DNA of 64,000 bases from a virus. A program made the position numbers and the translations under genes. The notes beneath the pieces are model-generated. The model ran no database searches and was not told where the DNA came from. It was given only the letters and a program-made list of their open reading frames with translations. Within the stretch, counting starts at the first letter, position 1, and every line of letters begins with the position of its first letter. This document shows positions 4,180 to 31,758 of this stretch, one piece after another. Where the stretch lies: positions 121,266 to 185,265 of IMG/VR virus record IMGVR_UViG_3300045960_000114; one strand, given 5' to 3'.

Positions 4180-4452
4180 GTGGCCATCAAGGTAAAGATG
4201 CTGTTCCTGGACCCCCACTGTGTTGATGTCGCAATCAAATCGGCTGAGTCGGATGGTGTGGGTATGGACTGGGCGCACCGTCACATCAACGAATGCAAAT
4301 GCTGCAGCGAGTACGACAAGCTGGTACGCGCGAATATGAAGGATGTGGCTGACGACCATGAGTCCGGGAATCTGGTACGGATGTGCTCAGCAAACACGAT
4401 GTCCGTCCGCATCCCCAAGGGGATCAAGCACGTGCACTTCGAGGCGCCTTAG
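4180..4452 (+). CDS. Hypothetical protein
   Basis: GTG start with AAGGAG RBS at 4168-4173. Confidence 0.6.
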   Translation: MAIKVKMLFLDPHCVDVAIKSAESDGVGMDWAHRHINECKCCSEYDKLVRANMKDVADDHESGNLVRMCSANTMSVRIPKGIKHVHFEAP

Positions 4453-4616
4453 TCCCCGGCGATCTTCTTCAGGTGTTCATTCAGTTCCTGGAGTTGCTGA
4501 TTGGTGCCGTGCAGTTCCTGCTGAATGCATGCTGCTCGCCGGTCGAAGATGACAATGCAGGTGGCAACCAGGCTGGCGATTACCAGTACCGTGATCAGGA
4601 ATTCACGCTTGGTCAT
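4449..4616 (-). CDS. Small single-pass membrane protein with coiled coil
   Basis: MTKREFLITVLVIASLVATCIVIF hydrophobic helix; GGGAGG RBS on the minus strand. Confidence 0.6.
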   Translation of the reverse strand: MTKREFLITVLVIASLVATCIVIFDRRAACIQQELHGTNQQLQELNEHLKKIAGD

Positions 4617-4651
4617 GTCACACCTCCCAACCAAAGGATAAAGGAGAACCG

Positions 4652-5245
4652 ATGTTAAGGCAAGATGTGCCGCTACTTACGTTGTGGCGACATGGCGGGC
4701 AGGACGTGCCGTATCTGGCTCTGGACGTGGAAACGTTGAAGGTAGTCAACCGGTCGCCGCTCTTCAGGTCGTGGGATCCAGGTTGGCAGATGCCGTGTAT
4801 TGATGCTAGTGGAGAGGGAGTGGACGGGCTCTGGCGGCTGAACCAGACAGACCCCGAGAACTCAAACGTCGAATTGATGCGGCCTGATGACCTCGATGAA
4901 ACACAGCGCCGGAACGTTGAAAGATTGGCACGCATTTTAAGGCTACTTGGACTGAAGTTTGAAAGCCTCTACGCAGACCTGACTTGTGGTCGTCAGCATC
5001 TCGTAAAAGAACAGCAGGATTTGAGCGAGCTTTTTCAGGTAGGATTATGGATCATGTTTGAATCTATTGACAGGATGGAAGGGCTGGGCTTTCCGCCTTC
5101 GGATAACCCGGAGGTATTGTCTGACATAAAGATCCGCTTAAGCGCACTGGTAAAATCAGTCCCGGAACAGCACGTGAAAGCGAGCTTTTTTAACAGGCTT
5201 TTGAGACATGGTTTTCGTACCCTCCGCGATCCCGAAAAGAAGTAG
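4652..5245 (+). CDS. Hypothetical protein
   Basis: 197-aa ORF with AAGGAG RBS. Confidence 0.65.
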   Translation: MLRQDVPLLTLWRHGGQDVPYLALDVETLKVVNRSPLFRSWDPGWQMPCIDASGEGVDGLWRLNQTDPENSNVELMRPDDLDETQRRNVERLARILRLLGLKFESLYADLTCGRQHLVKEQQDLSELFQVGLWIMFESIDRMEGLGFPPSDNPEVLSDIKIRLSALVKSVPEQHVKASFFNRLLRHGFRTLRDPEKK

Positions 5246-5278
5246 GGTCTCTCCGGTCGACATCTGGGCTGTTGGCGG

Positions 5279-5773
5279 GTGTCCGCCGAAGCTACCCTCA
5301 AAAAACCGATGTGGGCGATGCACGTAGTGCAGGAGCAGACTATGAGTGACCGATGTTACATCAGGGTTTGGTGTGCCAGGTGTGACGTTAACCTCTTTGA
5401 ACCCATAGGGTTACTTGAGGATGGCGGGGATGAAGCAGTCGCTGAGTTGGTCAATGCGGAGTGCAACTACGCGGCTGGGATGGGTTCTGGTGATGAGGAA
5501 GTAAACGGCTGGCCACTACGTGTTCCGTTCTTCGGCTGGCACTCAGGCGGCGGTGAATACGGTGCTTTGCAGTTCGTGTGCCTGGGTGATCGTAGGGTGA
5601 TTACCGTGGCGGACTACAAGGACCAGGTCGTAGTGGCCTTCAATGGGGCTACGGGTCAGCCTGTCTTTAGTGATGTCGAAAACGCATGTGCGTTCTTTGC
5701 GGCCATGGCGGTCGTACGCAACCACCTGATGATGCGACAGACAGAGGTACCAGGCGGGGCCAGTAGAGCCTGA
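5279..5773 (+). CDS. Hypothetical protein
   Basis: ORF in operon context; start uncertain. Confidence 0.55.
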   Translation: MSAEATLKKPMWAMHVVQEQTMSDRCYIRVWCARCDVNLFEPIGLLEDGGDEAVAELVNAECNYAAGMGSGDEEVNGWPLRVPFFGWHSGGGEYGALQFVCLGDRRVITVADYKDQVVVAFNGATGQPVFSDVENACAFFAAMAVVRNHLMMRQTEVPGGASRA

Positions 5774-5835
5774 CTGGTGGGAAGGACATGTAGCCCGGGT
5801 CGAGGCGGCGATGGATCGGCTTGGCTTGAGAAAGG

Positions 5836-6087
5836 ATGTGGTGGATGGAGAAGCGGGAACTGGTGCTGGGCAGCCTGGTAACGGGCCGCCCAGCAATCCT
5901 GTACTTACCGTACGAGATCACGGTAGACGAGGTTACGAAGCTGGAAAATTTTGTTGCGCATATCCGCTACGAAGCGGAGCAACGGGCGAAGGAGAAGTTG
6001 GATAACCTGAAGGCTGCACGGGGGAGTGCGGCCAAGGAAGAGACCAGACGGGTTGAACCCATACGGGTGGCGCCGTCACTGAAATAG
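5836..6087 (+). CDS. Hypothetical protein
   Basis: 83-aa ORF, RBS-like AAAGGA. Confidence 0.55.
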   Translation: MWWMEKRELVLGSLVTGRPAILYLPYEITVDEVTKLENFVAHIRYEAEQRAKEKLDNLKAARGSAAKEETRRVEPIRVAPSLK

Positions 6088-6097
6088 GAGGCAGTCG

Positions 6098-6985
6098 ATG
6101 CCGAATCTCGAGTCGTTCCCGCTCGGCTATCTGCTCAAGGGTGACGAGGGGGGTGATATCCTGATCAAGGCTTCAGTGAGGATGCTGGGCGAGCTGGCAC
6201 GTGGTGGGGTGATCGACCACAGCGTGGTGGATGAGCCCATGCTGATCAGGTGCATTCGGTTGGAGGAGGGCGGGCGTATCATGCATGTATTTCGGTCTGG
6301 TACGTACCGCGTGCACCTGGCGGAGAGAGAACTGGATCTGACTTGTGAACAGGACGAGGCGTGGTGCCGATTGGTGGAATTCACCTGTCTGCATGGGATG
6401 GCGGGCGAACTGCTGGTCTGTGACAGTGGCGGAATGGTGCCTGTGCGTACGAAGCTGGCCAGTGGCGAGAAGATCTGTGCCGCGGGTCCGTATTCGTCTT
6501 CACTGGTCAAGCAACGCCCGGAGCCGAAGCAGGATGTGGTCAATGAGGCGGTTCGCAGCGCTGCGAAGACGGCGTCCTTCGCGAATAACGAACGCAGGGT
6601 CAAGCTACGCCCGAAGTTGAAGAACCCGTTGGATGAGACGCCGGCATCGTCGCCGAGAGACATTGATGCCGAGTGGGCACATTGGCTGCGGCATGGTGCG
6701 CAGGAACTGGAGGCGAAGCGGGTGAAGGAGATGCTTGCGCGCCGGTATGCCGCGTTGCCTGAGAATGCGGTGACGAAGGCGGACGCGGACAGGATCAGGG
6801 ATCAGGTGAAGCTGCAGGGCGAACTACATTACCAGCTGGATTTGATCCGTGCGGCAGTCGAGTACCTGGAAGACAGGCTGGAGAACGCCAAGCAGCTGGG
6901 TATCCGCAAGGAGCTTACGGACAAGAGCGAGCGGATCATCAAGTTCATCCGCGATGACGATAGGGGGCGCCAGACAAAAGCGTAG
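6098..6985 (+). CDS. Hypothetical protein with C-terminal coiled coil
   Basis: 295-aa ORF with AGGAGG RBS. Confidence 0.7.
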   Translation: MPNLESFPLGYLLKGDEGGDILIKASVRMLGELARGGVIDHSVVDEPMLIRCIRLEEGGRIMHVFRSGTYRVHLAERELDLTCEQDEAWCRLVEFTCLHGMAGELLVCDSGGMVPVRTKLASGEKICAAGPYSSSLVKQRPEPKQDVVNEAVRSAAKTASFANNERRVKLRPKLKNPLDETPASSPRDIDAEWAHWLRHGAQELEAKRVKEMLARRYAALPENAVTKADADRIRDQVKLQGELHYQLDLIRAAVEYLEDRLENAKQLGIRKELTDKSERIIKFIRDDDRGRQTKA

Positions 6986-7095
6986 GCGGTCGCACGTCTA
7001 CGGTGAGGCATCGTAGTCCTCGATACTGGCTGACATGCCTGTGCTTGTCGGTTAGGCTTATGGGGGAAGGAGGGGGGTGTCTATGGAGGTGGAGA

Positions 7096-7242
7096 ATGAG
7101 AGCTCGGTTTGCGGAGTTCACCTTCTGGTTCATCAGGAGTCCGTTCTTGTGGTACGTTGTCTTTGGGTTGATTGTCGTTGCGATGGCAACGGTCATTACG
7201 GGTTGTCGACCGAACCCTGAAGACATCCCGATTTTCAGGTAG
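7096..7242 (+). CDS. Small putative lipoprotein
   Basis: GGAGGTGGAG RBS; hydrophobic helix ending in lipobox-like ITGC. Confidence 0.55.
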   Translation: MRARFAEFTFWFIRSPFLWYVVFGLIVVAMATVITGCRPNPEDIPIFR

Positions 7243-7246
7243 CCAA

Positions 7247-7273
7247 GGGGGCGGGGCACACGGCCCCGCCCCT
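7247..7273 (+). terminator. GC-rich hairpin
   Basis: GGGGCGGGGC / GCCCCGCCCC 10-bp stem directly after the stop; no U-tract. Confidence 0.4.
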
Positions 7274-7281
7274 CCTACCTT

Positions 7282-7530
7282 ATGAGGGTGACCGGAATGA
7301 CTGGAGCCGACTGGCGCAGGGTCAGCAAGTGTCCTAAGTGTCATGGCTCCAAGCTGTTTAGTGTGGTAGGTAATCACAAGGTAATCCTGCGTTGTCTCGA
7401 CTGTGATCACCACGTGGTGGGTCGCAACAGCGCACATTGCCTGAAGCTCTGGGTGCACGATAAGCGCCCTAAGAGCGAACGCCGGGCATACACCGACCAG
7501 GTGCGTCGCCCGTTTCAACAATCTTTTTGA
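7282..7530 (+). CDS. Zinc-ribbon protein
   Basis: CPKC...CLDC pairs. Confidence 0.55.
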   Translation: MRVTGMTGADWRRVSKCPKCHGSKLFSVVGNHKVILRCLDCDHHVVGRNSAHCLKLWVHDKRPKSERRAYTDQVRRPFQQSF

Positions 7531-7547
7531 GCACACACGGGGAAGAC

Positions 7548-7811
7548 ATGGCGAATAGCGGCTGTTTGGAAGGCATGCGGTGCCCATCTTGTGGTTCGGG
7601 GGGGCCGTTTCGGATCGCTTCGTTGTGCTGGGCGATCGTGCATGATGACGGGGTCAACGAGACATCCGAGCACGAGTGGGATCATTCCAGCAGTTGCCGC
7701 TGCATCAGCTGTGGGCATGCGAGCGATGTTGGCAAGTTCTCGCGCAAGCTGAAGACCAGAAAGGAACTGGCCCATGCAGATGGGGAATCGGCTGGAAAGG
7801 GCGCTGGATAA
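7548..7811 (+). CDS. Zinc-ribbon protein
   Basis: CPSC...CISC pairs. Confidence 0.6.
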   Translation: MANSGCLEGMRCPSCGSGGPFRIASLCWAIVHDDGVNETSEHEWDHSSSCRCISCGHASDVGKFSRKLKTRKELAHADGESAGKGAG

Positions 7812-7998
7812 GCTGGCGAGGATGTCGCACCCGTCTGTTGCCGGCTTGTTGAGCAAGTACAGTTTCGACTACGAGGCGGAAGTGGTGGACGAGGTAGTCG
7901 CGGCGTTTGAGGAGTGGCAGAAGGCTGCCAAATGCCCAGGAAGGGCAAAGGAGATGGAATGCGGAAGTTCATCGTCGGAATCATTGTCGTCGGGGTGA
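7774..7998 (+). CDS. Hypothetical protein
   Basis: ORF in operon context. Confidence 0.45.
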   Translation: MQMGNRLERALDKLARMSHPSVAGLLSKYSFDYEAEVVDEVVAAFEEWQKAAKCPGRAKEMECGSSSSESLSSG

Positions 7999-8111
7999 TG
8001 CTGTTGCCGGGTTGTTTCGGCGACCGTGGGCGTGTCGTTGAGATGGGGCGGATGTGGGAGCTGCAGTTGTCGCCTCAGGGACCGGATGACAGCTACGAGC
8101 CAGTGGGCTAG
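7959..8111 (+). CDS. Small putative lipoprotein
   Basis: MRKFIVGIIVVGVMLLPGC signal peptide with lipobox LPGC; AAGGAG RBS. Confidence 0.65.
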   Translation: MRKFIVGIIVVGVMLLPGCFGDRGRVVEMGRMWELQLSPQGPDDSYEPVG

Positions 8112-8137
8112 CGCGCTGGAGATAGGGAAGGAGGAGC

Positions 8138-8707
8138 ATGAGTCACAAGGTAAAGCCGGGGCAGGCATGTGTGATCAGAACCATTGAAGTCGCGTTCCCG
8201 GCTGGGACTTCTGAGGGTGACATCGACGACGAACTCAGCGTGATGCTCACGGATCACGGCACGCATAGTCCGAAGAGCAATGTGGCGGACTGGCGGTACA
8301 TACACAACGACAGGAAGGTTGAAGCGCGGGCCACGTTTGAGCCTGTGGAGGGTGAGATCTTCACGGTTGCGCGGACGAATCTGCCCAAGCAGGGCGTGAA
8401 GATGACGTTGGGGCAGAAGGTCAAGGAGAGGACGAAGGACCAGGTGTCGGTGCTGATTGTGAACAGCGAGACTGGTTGGGACTATTACGGGCACGAACCG
8501 TCGGGTCTGTCGCTGACGGTGTGCGTCGTCGATTTTACGGCGATGGGGAAAATGGATATTTGGGATATCAACGACCTGATTCTCTCGCTGACTCGGTTGG
8601 CGCCGTCGGTTCTTCGTGATAGTGCTCTGATACGGTTGCGCAAGGAGTATCGAGCCGCTGTCGCGCGGGCCGCTGCTAATGCGCAGGTACCCGACGACAA
8701 CATTTGA
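8138..8707 (+). CDS. Hypothetical protein
   Basis: 189-aa ORF with AGGAGGAG RBS. Confidence 0.65.
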   Translation: MSHKVKPGQACVIRTIEVAFPAGTSEGDIDDELSVMLTDHGTHSPKSNVADWRYIHNDRKVEARATFEPVEGEIFTVARTNLPKQGVKMTLGQKVKERTKDQVSVLIVNSETGWDYYGHEPSGLSLTVCVVDFTAMGKMDIWDINDLILSLTRLAPSVLRDSALIRLRKEYRAAVARAAANAQVPDDNI

Positions 8708-9717: not shown

Positions 9718-10308
9718 GTGATGATCACGCAGATGGTTGTTCTGAAGTGGCGGCACGCGCTGGATCATACGCCGCGCTTCACCGTGGTTGGACCGGGCAC
9801 GACGCTGATGGTCAAGGACAAGGTCTTGTGGGTTAACGACTCGCCGACATGCAATGGCTTCTCCACAGCTGACGAGGCGAATGCGTTCGCTTCCTCCTTG
9901 TTGAACAGCATCAACAAGTGTTCGGGCAGCAACGCCGTGTTTGACTTGGACAAGCTGTCGTATGTGACCACCTATGAGGCCAAGAACAACGAGTTGGATG
10001 CGCGGGTGGCGGAGTTGACACGTCGGGCGCTCGGATATGACCAGTCGATTGCCGATCGTAAAGCGCGCCTGGAGCAGCTGGAGAAGCAGCACACTGAGAT
10101 GTGGTTGAAGTTTTCTGATGCGGAGGGCAAGAACGCCGAGTTGAGCAAGAAGTTGGAGGAGTCGGAAATCCGTATCACAGCGAAGAGGCAGAGGATGCGT
10201 GAGTTGGACGACGAAGCGCAGATCATACAACAGCGGATCAAGGCAACAGAGACCTGGATCAAACGGAATCGGGTGACGCTGAAGCGCCTGAAAGGGAAGC
10301 GTAAGTGA
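9718..10308 (+). CDS. Coiled-coil hypothetical protein
   Basis: Long heptad-rich C-terminal half; AAGGAG RBS. Confidence 0.7.
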   Translation: MMITQMVVLKWRHALDHTPRFTVVGPGTTLMVKDKVLWVNDSPTCNGFSTADEANAFASSLLNSINKCSGSNAVFDLDKLSYVTTYEAKNNELDARVAELTRRALGYDQSIADRKARLEQLEKQHTEMWLKFSDAEGKNAELSKKLEESEIRITAKRQRMRELDDEAQIIQQRIKATETWIKRNRVTLKRLKGKRK

Positions 10309-10802
10309 AGTGTAAACTGTGCGAGACCAAGGAAGCCTACAAGGGCACGGAACTGTGCTACCCGTGCTCTGAGTTGCGCAATGCGATTGCCGCCGATCCG
10401 GGGCTGGCTGCGAAGATCCTGCGTAGCCTGTCCCCACCGGTAGCGGACAAGGCCAAATCGGAAGGGTGGCATGGCGTCGACCTGGACGGGACGCTGGCGC
10501 ACTACGACGGCTGGAAGGGCATTGATCACGTCGGCGAGCCGATTCCACGGATGGCGGAACGCGTGTGCCAGTGGCTGCTCCGCGACGAGCAGGTGCGCAT
10601 CTTCACGGCGCGCGTCTGTCCCAATCAGGATGGGCGTGTGCTCGAGGTGGTGCGGTACTGGATCGACAAGTGGTGCCTGGAGCACTTTGGGCGGACGCTG
10701 CCGGTCACGAACGAGAAGGACTTCGGGATGATTGACCTTTGGGATGATAGGTGTGTCCAGGTCATCCCCAACACAGGAATCAGAGCGGATGGAAAGGAGT
10801 AA
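10305..10802 (+). CDS. HAD-superfamily phosphatase (phage PNKP-phosphatase-like) with N-terminal Zn finger
   Basis: GVDLDGTLA (DxDGT motif I), IFTAR (motif II), NEKD and WDDR (motifs III/IV); N-terminal CKLC...CYPC. Confidence 0.8.
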   Translation: MKCKLCETKEAYKGTELCYPCSELRNAIAADPGLAAKILRSLSPPVADKAKSEGWHGVDLDGTLAHYDGWKGIDHVGEPIPRMAERVCQWLLRDEQVRIFTARVCPNQDGRVLEVVRYWIDKWCLEHFGRTLPVTNEKDFGMIDLWDDRCVQVIPNTGIRADGKE

Positions 10803-12716: not shown

Positions 12717-12902
12717 ATGAGGCGTCTGAAGAGTGTCGAGACGGACCAGTACAGTCTCGAGGTGATCGAGTGTGACTGTGGGTATCACATGGGGATAGAC
12801 TCCAGTTTCCTGGATCAGGTGGGTGATTTTGAGACCACATGTCCTTCGTGTGAGAGGGCTATCCGGACGGAGGATATTGTTCCGGAGGACATTGACGGAT
12901 AG
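12717..12902 (+). CDS. Zinc-ribbon protein
   Basis: CDCG...CPSC; GGGAGG RBS. Confidence 0.65.
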   Translation: MRRLKSVETDQYSLEVIECDCGYHMGIDSSFLDQVGDFETTCPSCERAIRTEDIVPEDIDG

Positions 12903-12908
12903 CTAAGG

Positions 12909-12930
12909 AAAAGGCGTAGTGCCTTTTCTT
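12909..12930 (+). terminator. Rho-independent terminator
   Basis: AAAAGGC-GTAGT-GCCTTTT followed by CTT. Confidence 0.6.
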
Positions 12931-13019
12931 TGTGCCCCCTGCGGCGTAAACGGCCTGGCCTGATCAACCAGGACATCCAGGATGATCTCCTGGTTAGCGC
13001 TGTTGGGGGTATCAGTTTT

Positions 13020-13173
13020 GCCGCGATAGCTCAGAGCGAGCCCGTACCCTGCAAGTACGGTGTGTAGCCGGCGCGCATGCGACCGGTGAAAGTCTGGATC
13101 CGACTGGGAGAGTCACGTGCTCCCTGCCAGTTGGCCGAGCCAGGCGAAGGGGGTGCGACTCCCTCGCGCGGCA
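13020..13173 (+). ncRNA. tRNA-like RNA with an ~89-nt structured insertion in the variable region (anticodon position TGC)
   Basis: Acceptor GCCGCGA/GCGCGGC (6 of 7 pairs), TAGCTC, D stem GCTC/GAGC, anticodon arm CCGTAC-CCTGCAA-GTACGG, T arm GGGGG-TGCGACT-CCCTC. Confidence 0.6.
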
Positions 13174-13209
13174 CTTCAAAGCAACTTCAATTACCTTGGA
13201 GGATGAAGC

Positions 13210-13473
13210 ATGGCAGAAATCATCGCTACGTATTCCCCGTGCTGCGGGATCTTTCACACAGGAGACGCAGAGCAGGGAATCATGCACTGCGCACTGCCGC
13301 ATGAGCGGCAAGTCATAAAACTGGTGGATGAGAAGGAGCTAGGGATACTTGCGATACTTGAAGAAGAGAATCGCAGGCTGAAGCAGATGAACAAGCGTTT
13401 TGAAATAGCGCTTCGCGGCCTTGGCTACACGTCGGATAGCTCGATTTTCATTCAGGTGACTAGGCTTGCGTGA
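13210..13473 (+). CDS. Hypothetical protein
   Basis: GGAGG RBS. Confidence 0.6.
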   Translation: MAEIIATYSPCCGIFHTGDAEQGIMHCALPHERQVIKLVDEKELGILAILEEENRRLKQMNKRFEIALRGLGYTSDSSIFIQVTRLA

Positions 13474-13545
13474 GTGTAAGGCAATAGGAGGATTCTGCTG
13501 TGAGTGCAGCAGAGGCACAAACAGGATTATCTTGGAGGTAGCCCG

Positions 13546-31410: not shown

Positions 31411-31758
31411 ATGTCATCCATCGAGAACCTACTGGGTGTGCGATTCACCTCATACAGGGGTGTATCGACGATTGAGGTTAGCAACGCGTTGTTAAAGCGC
31501 TGGATGCCCTTGGGGATGTACTTCTTTGGGGTGATCATCCTGCGCGGTCGGCAGTCGAGAAACACCAGGGCACACGAGTATTGTCACTACCTTCAGGCGA
31601 AGGAGGACTCGTTGTTCTGGTTTAAGTATTTGTTTGAGTATGCCCGGGTAGGTTACTGGGCCAACAAATACGAACGGGCAGCGCGGATTTTCGCGTTGCG
31701 ATCCCGTTGTTCCTCTCTCTTTCGGCGAAGCCAGTATATGCCTTTTGCCAAACCGTAG
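31411..31758 (+). CDS. Small HExxH metallopeptidase-like protein
   Basis: RAHEYCHYLQ...YERAA. Confidence 0.5.
   Translation: MSSIENLLGVRFTSYRGVSTIEVSNALLKRWMPLGMYFFGVIILRGRQSRNTRAHEYCHYLQAKEDSLFWFKYLFEYARVGYWANKYERAARIFALRSRCSSLFRRSQYMPFAKP

Follow-up and report, generated by a model that had tools for sequence, protein, structure and literature searches.

A tRNA-like phage RNA with two extra arms in its variable region

The stretch of DNA analysed here (the window, 64,000 nucleotides) covers bases 121266-185265 of the 185-kb IMG/VR phage record IMGVR_UViG_3300045960_000114, which is estimated to be 88% complete. In a 307-bp gap between two small genes of its plus strand lies a 154-nt element (13020-13173, plus strand) that has the outline of a tRNA and an 89-nt variable region. 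Its sequence raises the question whether it is a tRNA that decodes, a tRNA gene interrupted by a removable insert, a relic or chance arrangement, or an RNA that is shaped like a tRNA and acts elsewhere. We approach this question through the frame of the element, through a second copy in a metagenome contig, and through a comparison with phage and bacterial RNAs of similar build; the features discussed are collected in Table 1.

Table 1. Features of the element and its immediate surroundings, in window coordinates.
Feature	Positions	Strand	Basis
Upstream gene, 61-aa zinc-ribbon-like ORF	12717-12902	+	ORF list, sequence
Terminator-like hairpin GAAAAGGC / GCCTTTTC, then TTTGTG, after the 61-aa gene	12907-12926	+	Read by eye; putative terminator
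U-rich 5′ leader TTTT (TTTC in L084), first conserved bases before G1	13016-13019	+	Alignment with L084; putative RNase P leader
Acceptor stem, 5′ strand GCCGCGA	13020-13026	+	Six G-C pairs, 13020-13025/13167-13172; same stem drawn by ARAGORN
D arm, 4-bp stem GCTC/GAGC, 5-nt loop AGAGC without GG	13029-13041	+	Sequence, ARAGORN, consensus fold; invariant in L084
Anticodon-like arm, 6-bp stem, 7-nt loop CCUGCAA	13042-13060	+	Compensatory change A13046-T13056 to G-C in L084; loop invariant
Extra arm 1, 8-bp hairpin, bulged A13082, loop GCAU	13067-13087	+	Compensatory change G13071-C13083 to A-T in L084
Extra arm 2, 54-nt composite hairpin	13092-13145	+	Compensatory change T13095-A13142 to G-C; A13103G keeps a G-U pair
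GAA junction, within the sequence GGCGAAG (13144-13150)	13146-13148	+	Sequence
T arm, GGGGG / CCCTC, loop UGCGACU, G at position 55 (G13155)	13149-13165	+	Sequence, ARAGORN; invariant in L084
Acceptor stem, 3′ strand, and discriminator A (A13173)	13166-13173	+	Sequence, alignment with L084
87-aa gene with ribosome-binding site, putative separately mobile cassette	13188-13484	+	Homology to L057-L063 begins at 13188
Downstream gene, 87-aa ORF	13210-13473	+	Separate from the RNA

The tRNA frame of the element

Reading of the sequence confirms the outline drawn by the first-pass annotation: the four arms are in order, the D loop has 5 nt and no GG, the loops of the anticodon-like arm and the T arm are CCTGCAA and TGCGACT, and CCA is not encoded, the element ending in GGCA-CTT where its homolog L084, described below, continues with CCA. 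U8 and A9 are present, as are A14, T54, C56, A58 and the G53-C61 pair, which together with the ordered arms are canonical features of tRNAs. U33, G18G19 and U(Ψ)55 are all missing, and L084 is identical to the element at these positions; the anticodon-like loop runs C32, C33 (C13049), U34, G35, C36. In the acceptor stem, the six G-C pairs are followed by an A7.G66 mismatch (A13026 facing G13166), and the third pair, C13022-G13170, is Watson-Crick; there is thus no G3.U70, as had also been remarked at first reading. The T arm can further be drawn in a shifted 7-bp register, as seen in the consensus fold of the two copies. In a library of 72 tRNAs from the loci examined, the frame lies closest to class I tRNAs of the Thr and Ala types, which is a weak hint only. 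The G+C content of the element is 68%, compared to 57.5% for the genome.

Neither ARAGORN with default settings nor Rfam at gathering scores makes a call at 13020-13173. The tRNA model RF00005 gives no match even at E up to 10, and a sensitive Rfam scan returns only noise, tRNA-Sec included (15.6 bits, E 2.3). The first-pass annotation had expected either a low score or an intron call from such programs; at lowered thresholds, ARAGORN indeed proposes a 79-nt 'intron'. Standard tRNA finders and Rfam miss RNAs of this class. We shortened the element in silico, removing 56-94 nt in all combinations from the variable region so as to bring it to lengths that ARAGORN allows. At its default threshold, the program calls tRNA-Ala(tgc) in 125 of the 350 variants, with scores of about 100-103, and scores reach 108.8 in the lowered-threshold run; the only two other ARAGORN calls in the genome score 103 and 108.

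The tRNA frame is very unlikely to be a chance arrangement. A rule-based scan (at least 19 of 21 stem pairs, U8, A14, T54, C56, A58, G53-C61, R37, and a variable region of 4-150 nt) has the element as its single match on both strands of the 185-kb genome and no match in 30 first-order-Markov random genome equivalents; since the criteria were set after the element had been seen, these figures are indicative only. A search of the genome for paralogs found none, a second 'T arm' at 31434 falling within a coding frame.

A second copy and the pairs it preserves

A relaxed pattern in which the unusual D arm is linked to the T loop (GCTCAGAGCGAGC-N97-127-TGCGACT) occurs at 34 metagenome loci. Model R1, a covariance model built from the single sequence, picks exactly one of these, L084 424-586 (179 bits, E 7e-53); the remaining 33 are chance matches within coding sequence. 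L084 is a 10.7-kb JGI metagenome contig (Ga0105099_10002574) with phage-type genes, among them a papain-like peptidase, ThyX, ribonucleotide-reductase fragments and MazG. By blastn and tblastx, all that it has in common with our phage is a block of 159 bp at 93% identity, which begins with TTT(T/C) directly before G1 and ends after the discriminator A and one C. The flanks are unalignable, and no neighboring gene is common to the two copies. The element is thus a self-contained unit, with edges almost exactly at the ends of a mature tRNA, in two otherwise unrelated phage sequences; judging from this alignment, it has been inherited or transferred as a unit.

Further copies were sought widely, and none was found. 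Blastn returned no match in 50,697 phage records or in 72,556 plasmid records, and several exact-pattern DNA scans of IMG/VR gave no homolog. A pattern scan of 185,579 species genomes gave 29 loci, none of them real, and 401 genomes from the order of a Hyphomicrobium MAG gave only chance matches of 19-30 nt in GC-rich DNA, none tRNA-like. Models R1 and R2 detected no homolog in 20 records related by the JAB gene, and R2 none in 31 records related by ThyX, nor anything in Xanthomonas phage XacN1. No record was found of the ThyX gene that adjoins the L084 copy.

Of the 154 positions, 10 are different between the two copies, and the distribution of these differences is that of a structured RNA under selection. 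Six of the ten form three compensatory pairs: one in the anticodon-like stem, one in the first hairpin of the insert, and one in the long-range helix of extra arm 2 (Table 1). A seventh, A13103G, turns an A-U pair into G-U, and the remaining three (13108, 13109 and 13137) fall in internal loops. In the version of the RNAalifold consensus that contains the canonical T arm, all 47 pairs are standard in both copies and none is broken. A shuffle control (68 of 500) is weak with two sequences, and for this reason 10 substitutions were placed at random 200,000 times on the centroid fold of the element alone, which had been predicted before L084 was known; the probability of at least three compensatory pairs is 1.5e-5, and that of no broken pair 0.003. 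As only two sequences are known, the covariation consists of three events, and as the acceptor, D and T stems are invariant, it speaks neither for nor against these. Pairing in the anticodon-like arm and in both extra arms is maintained by selection. The homolog passes the test for compensatory changes that had been proposed at first reading: one such change falls in the anticodon arm, the other two within the insert. A conserved small protein as the cause of the similarity was ruled out by the coding pattern: the two open frames across the block show 9-10 amino-acid changes in 11 changed codons, and no frame has a synonymous bias.

The same comparison decides between folds of the insert. The 89-nt variable region folds as one 21-nt hairpin and one 54-nt composite arm, the latter built from the helices 13092-13097/13140-13145 and 13100-13107/13127-13134 and an apex, 13110-13113/13119-13122, with the loop CACGU. 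The supported order of elements is acceptor stem, D arm, anticodon-like arm, extra arm 1, extra arm 2, GAA junction and T arm. The thermodynamic optimum for the single sequence is different: it is a rod that absorbs the T arm, pairing its region with 13106-13128, and although its calculated energy is lower by 12 kcal/mol (-72.9 compared to about -61 kcal/mol), two of its pairs are broken in L084 and it was rejected. So was our first hairpin model (hp2, hp3 and hp4, including AGTC/GACT and GGGAG/CTCCC), which likewise has two pairs broken in L084. Of the hairpins listed by the first-pass annotation, CCGGCGC/GCG-A-CCGG is retained as extra arm 1, with its compensatory change, while GGGAG/CTCCC loses a pair in L084; AGTC/GACT is compatible with L084 but competes with the better-supported first two helices of extra arm 2.

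A near-identical copy in an otherwise unrelated phage, together with pairs kept by matching mutations, marks a real, selected RNA. We are accordingly highly confident that the element is a selected tRNA-like RNA.

What the RNA may be

Both copies carry the same set of features that are foreign to a decoder: C33, the lack of G18G19, G55, the A7.G66 mismatch, the absence of G3.U70, and the 89-nt two-armed variable region. C33, the D loop without GG, G55 and the insert argue against decoding, and we consider it likely that the element does not decode, even though the conservation of its anticodon loop would also fit decoding. On balance, it is probably a selected, non-decoding tRNA mimic. This agrees with the tRNA-mimic scaffold proposed by the first-pass annotation, in that the RNA is selected, structured and tRNA-shaped, with the features of a non-decoder.

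The other readings of the element each draw on part of the same evidence. A working tRNA with a giant variable arm, aminoacylated and reading GCA/GCG codons or serving in recoding, would have just the four intact arms that are seen, the invariant 7-nt anticodon loop on a stem kept by compensatory change, the encoded CCA of L084, and a discriminator A73 with an acceptor stem and frame nearest to Thr- and Ala-type tRNAs (in a small library). However, U33, which is near-universal in tRNAs, is replaced by C33; AlaRS would find no G3.U70, its identity element, and ThrRS would find C36 in place of the U36 that it reads; the D loop has no G18G19, position 55 is G, and the variable region, with 89 nt and two arms, is far above any class II arm. 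The native sequence is moreover rejected by ARAGORN and by the Rfam tRNA model, and we see only a slim chance for this reading. That the insert is an intron or small mobile element, whose removal would yield a normal tRNA, is very improbable. ARAGORN accepts the sequence after in-silico deletion of 60-90 nt and proposes the 79-nt 'intron' mentioned above, but the insert lies in the variable region, after the anticodon arm, rather than in the anticodon loop, and has neither group I nor bulge-helix-bulge features; Rfam gives no match to group I, group II or any other ribozyme at E up to 10. Elsewhere in the genome there is no further copy of the insert, nor does it match its own flanks, and inspection for terminal or target-site repeats around it noticed none. 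Even after excision, the frame would retain C33, G55 and the D loop without GG. The insert is conserved as two paired arms with compensatory changes, as expected of a permanent part of the RNA, and the intron-containing tRNA of the first-pass annotation is not supported. A decaying pseudogene, or a functionless chance arrangement, would account for the several departures from the tRNA consensus, for the silence of both gene finders and for the single homolog found, but the random expectation is below 0.03 per genome, a 93% identical copy sits in a phage with nothing else in common, and none of 47 pairs is broken while three have changed in a compensatory manner; this reading is disfavored and scarcely credible.

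A further alternative takes the element for a Y-RNA-like adaptor, an unpermuted counterpart of YrlA that would use the sequence GGCGAAG to bind Ro60/Rsr, supplied by the host or by a co-infecting phage, and would present a tRNA-like module. YrlA RNAs (RF02553; PMC4201824) resemble the element in being tRNA mimics, whose D, T and acceptor-like modules are recognized by tRNA enzymes, and the GGCGAAG of the element, conserved in L084, fits the Y-RNA motif GNCGAAN0-1G (Chen et al., 2014, PMC4201824). The structural position of the motif differs, however, and the match could be due to chance: a 6-base motif would be expected in 154 nt in an estimated 5-10% of cases. In relatives of our phage, on contigs with a 47%-identical JAB protein, a vWA_Ro60 gene adjoins the same ubiquitin-like cassette, and a 188-kb relative (G002, also listed as L004) has a TROVE ORF followed by YrlA, a tmRNA and two weak YrlB matches, the T loop of its YrlA being identical to that of the element (UGCGACU) and its D loop also lacking GG. 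Our phage has the cassette without YrlA, YrlB, tmRNA or Ro60 and has no Y RNA near it; profile searches and tblastn find no TROVE/vWA_Ro60 gene in the 185-kb record, at 88% completeness, and none was seen in L084. RF02553 gives no match in 12900-13300, while the same search finds the YrlA of the relative. The strand order also differs: YrlA is permuted (motif, V, T, acceptor hairpin, D) and ends in the Ro-binding stem, whereas the element follows the normal tRNA order (acceptor, D, anticodon, V, T) with open acceptor ends and has the motif directly against the T arm, not in a terminal stem. We regard the adaptor as improbable.

For the non-decoding mimic, a route from gene to action can be proposed. 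The RNA would be transcribed together with the neighboring small genes, cut by RNase P at G13020, trimmed at its 3′ end and given CCA by the host, yielding a product of about 154 nt, or about 157 with CCA; this route is suggested by the U-rich leader, the 7-position acceptor stem with A73, the T arm, and the CCA encoded in L084. It would then adopt the L shape, with an A18/G55 contact in place of G18/Ψ55, and act away from the ribosome, where it would occupy a host factor that recognizes tRNA. A compensatory change preserves the anticodon-like arm, whose loop is invariant, and the mimic therefore probably presents an anticodon stem-loop as well as the acceptor/T 'top'. The likeliest guess for the factor would be a tRNase acting in defense or as a toxin, or some other enzyme that binds tRNA and recognizes the anticodon arm; an anticodon nuclease or a modification enzyme are further candidates. 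The extra arms would provide stability or a second binding surface. That the RNA acts in this way as a decoy or competitive inhibitor of a tRNA-reading factor, as the first-pass annotation had suggested for anticodon nucleases, is possible but doubtful. It is more speculative, and unlikely, that the element belongs, as a single lineage, to a wide and so far unnamed class of 'giant-arm' tRNA mimics, which would pass from phage to phage as self-contained genes and would disarm tRNA-directed immunity of the host (anticodon or T-loop nucleases, for example) or capture a host tRNA-binding protein; the altered A18/G55 elbow, which recurs in the other phage RNAs described below, would be a shared adaptation preserving the L shape but evading a host factor that reads the elbow. 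As to proteins of the phage itself, RtcB, a CCA-adding enzyme, Ro60 and tmRNA were looked for, and none is in the record. A weak and uninformative match to the RNA_ligase domain lies inside a 1315-aa ORF of the record.

Related RNAs, the elbow and the surrounding genes

Since the 1970s, to our knowledge, the stable tRNA-like RNAs that T4 and T5 carry have gone unexplained, and we know of no function for the T4 RNAs rnaC and rnaD. By analogy of build, the closest published relatives of the element in kind would be the T5 RNAs, and those of T4 are similar. RNA1 (144 nt) and RNA2 (125 nt) of T5 are annotated as 'tRNA-like stable RNA with unknown functions' (GenBank AY543070). They are 125-145 nt long and, like the element, are phage-encoded and combine acceptor-like paired ends and a T arm with a large structured insert; in our folds, their ends are paired and the large insert lies between a D-like arm and a canonical T arm. 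The element differs in keeping a full anticodon-like arm, with the extra material in the variable region, in G55, and in its D loop without GG. The T5 RNAs lie inside a tRNA gene cluster, whereas the element stands alone among small early-type genes, and they have no sequence relationship to it, model R2 finding nothing in T5. In T4, rnaC (species 1 RNA, 139 nt) and rnaD (species 2 RNA, 119 nt; GenBank AF158101) are likewise small stable phage RNAs of similar size, rnaC with a canonical T arm and paired ends; they are part of the T4 tRNA cluster, have no similarity to the element detectable by blastn, and in their folds we saw no complete cloverleaf with two variable-region arms.

If a kind is loosely defined by architecture, as phage-encoded RNAs of about 120-145 nt with acceptor-like ends, a T arm and a large insert, the element falls within it. 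The architecture is shared with the stable RNAs of T5 and T4; the element differs in its full anticodon-like arm, the two arms of the variable region and the altered elbow. The element offers a clean example of this kind, with a full cloverleaf and two selected extra arms, as a discrete unit in two unrelated phages, and its defined set of non-decoder features makes it a construct with which to ask what such RNAs bind and whether they counter tRNA-targeting defenses.

Two cellular RNAs offer partial parallels. In class II tRNAs (Leu, Ser, bacterial Tyr, Sec), an extra helix likewise emerges from the variable region of a complete cloverleaf, but it is a single hairpin of about 10-25 nt, compared to the 89 nt and two arms of the element, which has a class I-like D arm, C33 and G55. 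In tmRNA (RF00023), a tRNA-like acceptor/T domain encloses a large insert, as here, but the element is under half the size and has no G3.U70, no tmRNA call by ARAGORN or Rfam, no recognizable pseudoknots and no tag frame.

In the 188-kb relative (IMGVR_UViG_3300032156_000001), an RNA island at 4370-8223 is located directly upstream of the Ubl/JAB/E1 cassette. It contains the Ro60/TROVE ORF, the YrlA RNA (7416-7547; 39.5 bits, E 5e-7), the two weak YrlB matches, and a true tmRNA (7618-7985; 76 bits) with the tag AKNDKFVRGGFGLRAAA and the T loop UGCGAGU. vWA_Ro60 adjoins the cassette also in the ENA contigs that carry P0006.

T loops with G55 (UGCGA..) occur in the element (13154-13160), in the YrlA and tmRNA of this relative, and in a tRNA-Pro(tgg) of another large phage (L025 20644-20718). 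In all three of these G55 RNAs that have a D loop, this loop reads AG where GG is expected. The RNAs may thus share an A18/G55 variant of the elbow; the recurrence of the G55 T loop with a D loop lacking GG points to an alternative tRNA elbow that can be tested.

The genes around the element have histories of their own. The hairpin that follows the 61-aa gene is not called by the consensus terminator scan. Downstream, homology of the 87-aa gene to the loci L057-L063 starts 15 bases past the end of the element, at 87% nucleotide identity with L057, where the gene adjoins RecT, and 78% with L058-L063, where it adjoins a Mom-like gene; these loci have nothing else in common with ours, and the RNA element is absent from them. 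On this pattern, the 87-aa gene and its ribosome-binding site appear to behave as a mobile cassette and not as part of the RNA. For the upstream 114-aa protein, a single homolog was found. In L002, the nearest relative of the phage (about 76% nucleotide identity), the sequence stops 5 kb before it would reach the locus.

The neighborhood of the RNA has the look of an early, anti-defense type block of small genes. A small ORF at 13770-14033 matches Lar-like restriction-alleviation proteins (PHROG 599, E 2e-6). At 10305-10802 lies a HAD-type phosphatase-like gene (DLDGT motif), with weak PHROG matches to phosphoheptose isomerase and polynucleotide kinase and a 48%-identical homolog in the relative G001; between 9 and 17 kb, it alone resembles cultured phages at the DNA level (Rhizobium phages, 67-84%), which is a weak hint that the host may be a rhizobial alphaproteobacterium. 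Further along the plus strand, a tRNA at 40760-40834 scores 46.8 bits in Rfam and is reported by ARAGORN as 'tRNA-???' with the anticodon 'tc', 8 bp in the acceptor stem and 6 nt in the anticodon loop; an unusual or frameshift-type tRNA is one possibility.
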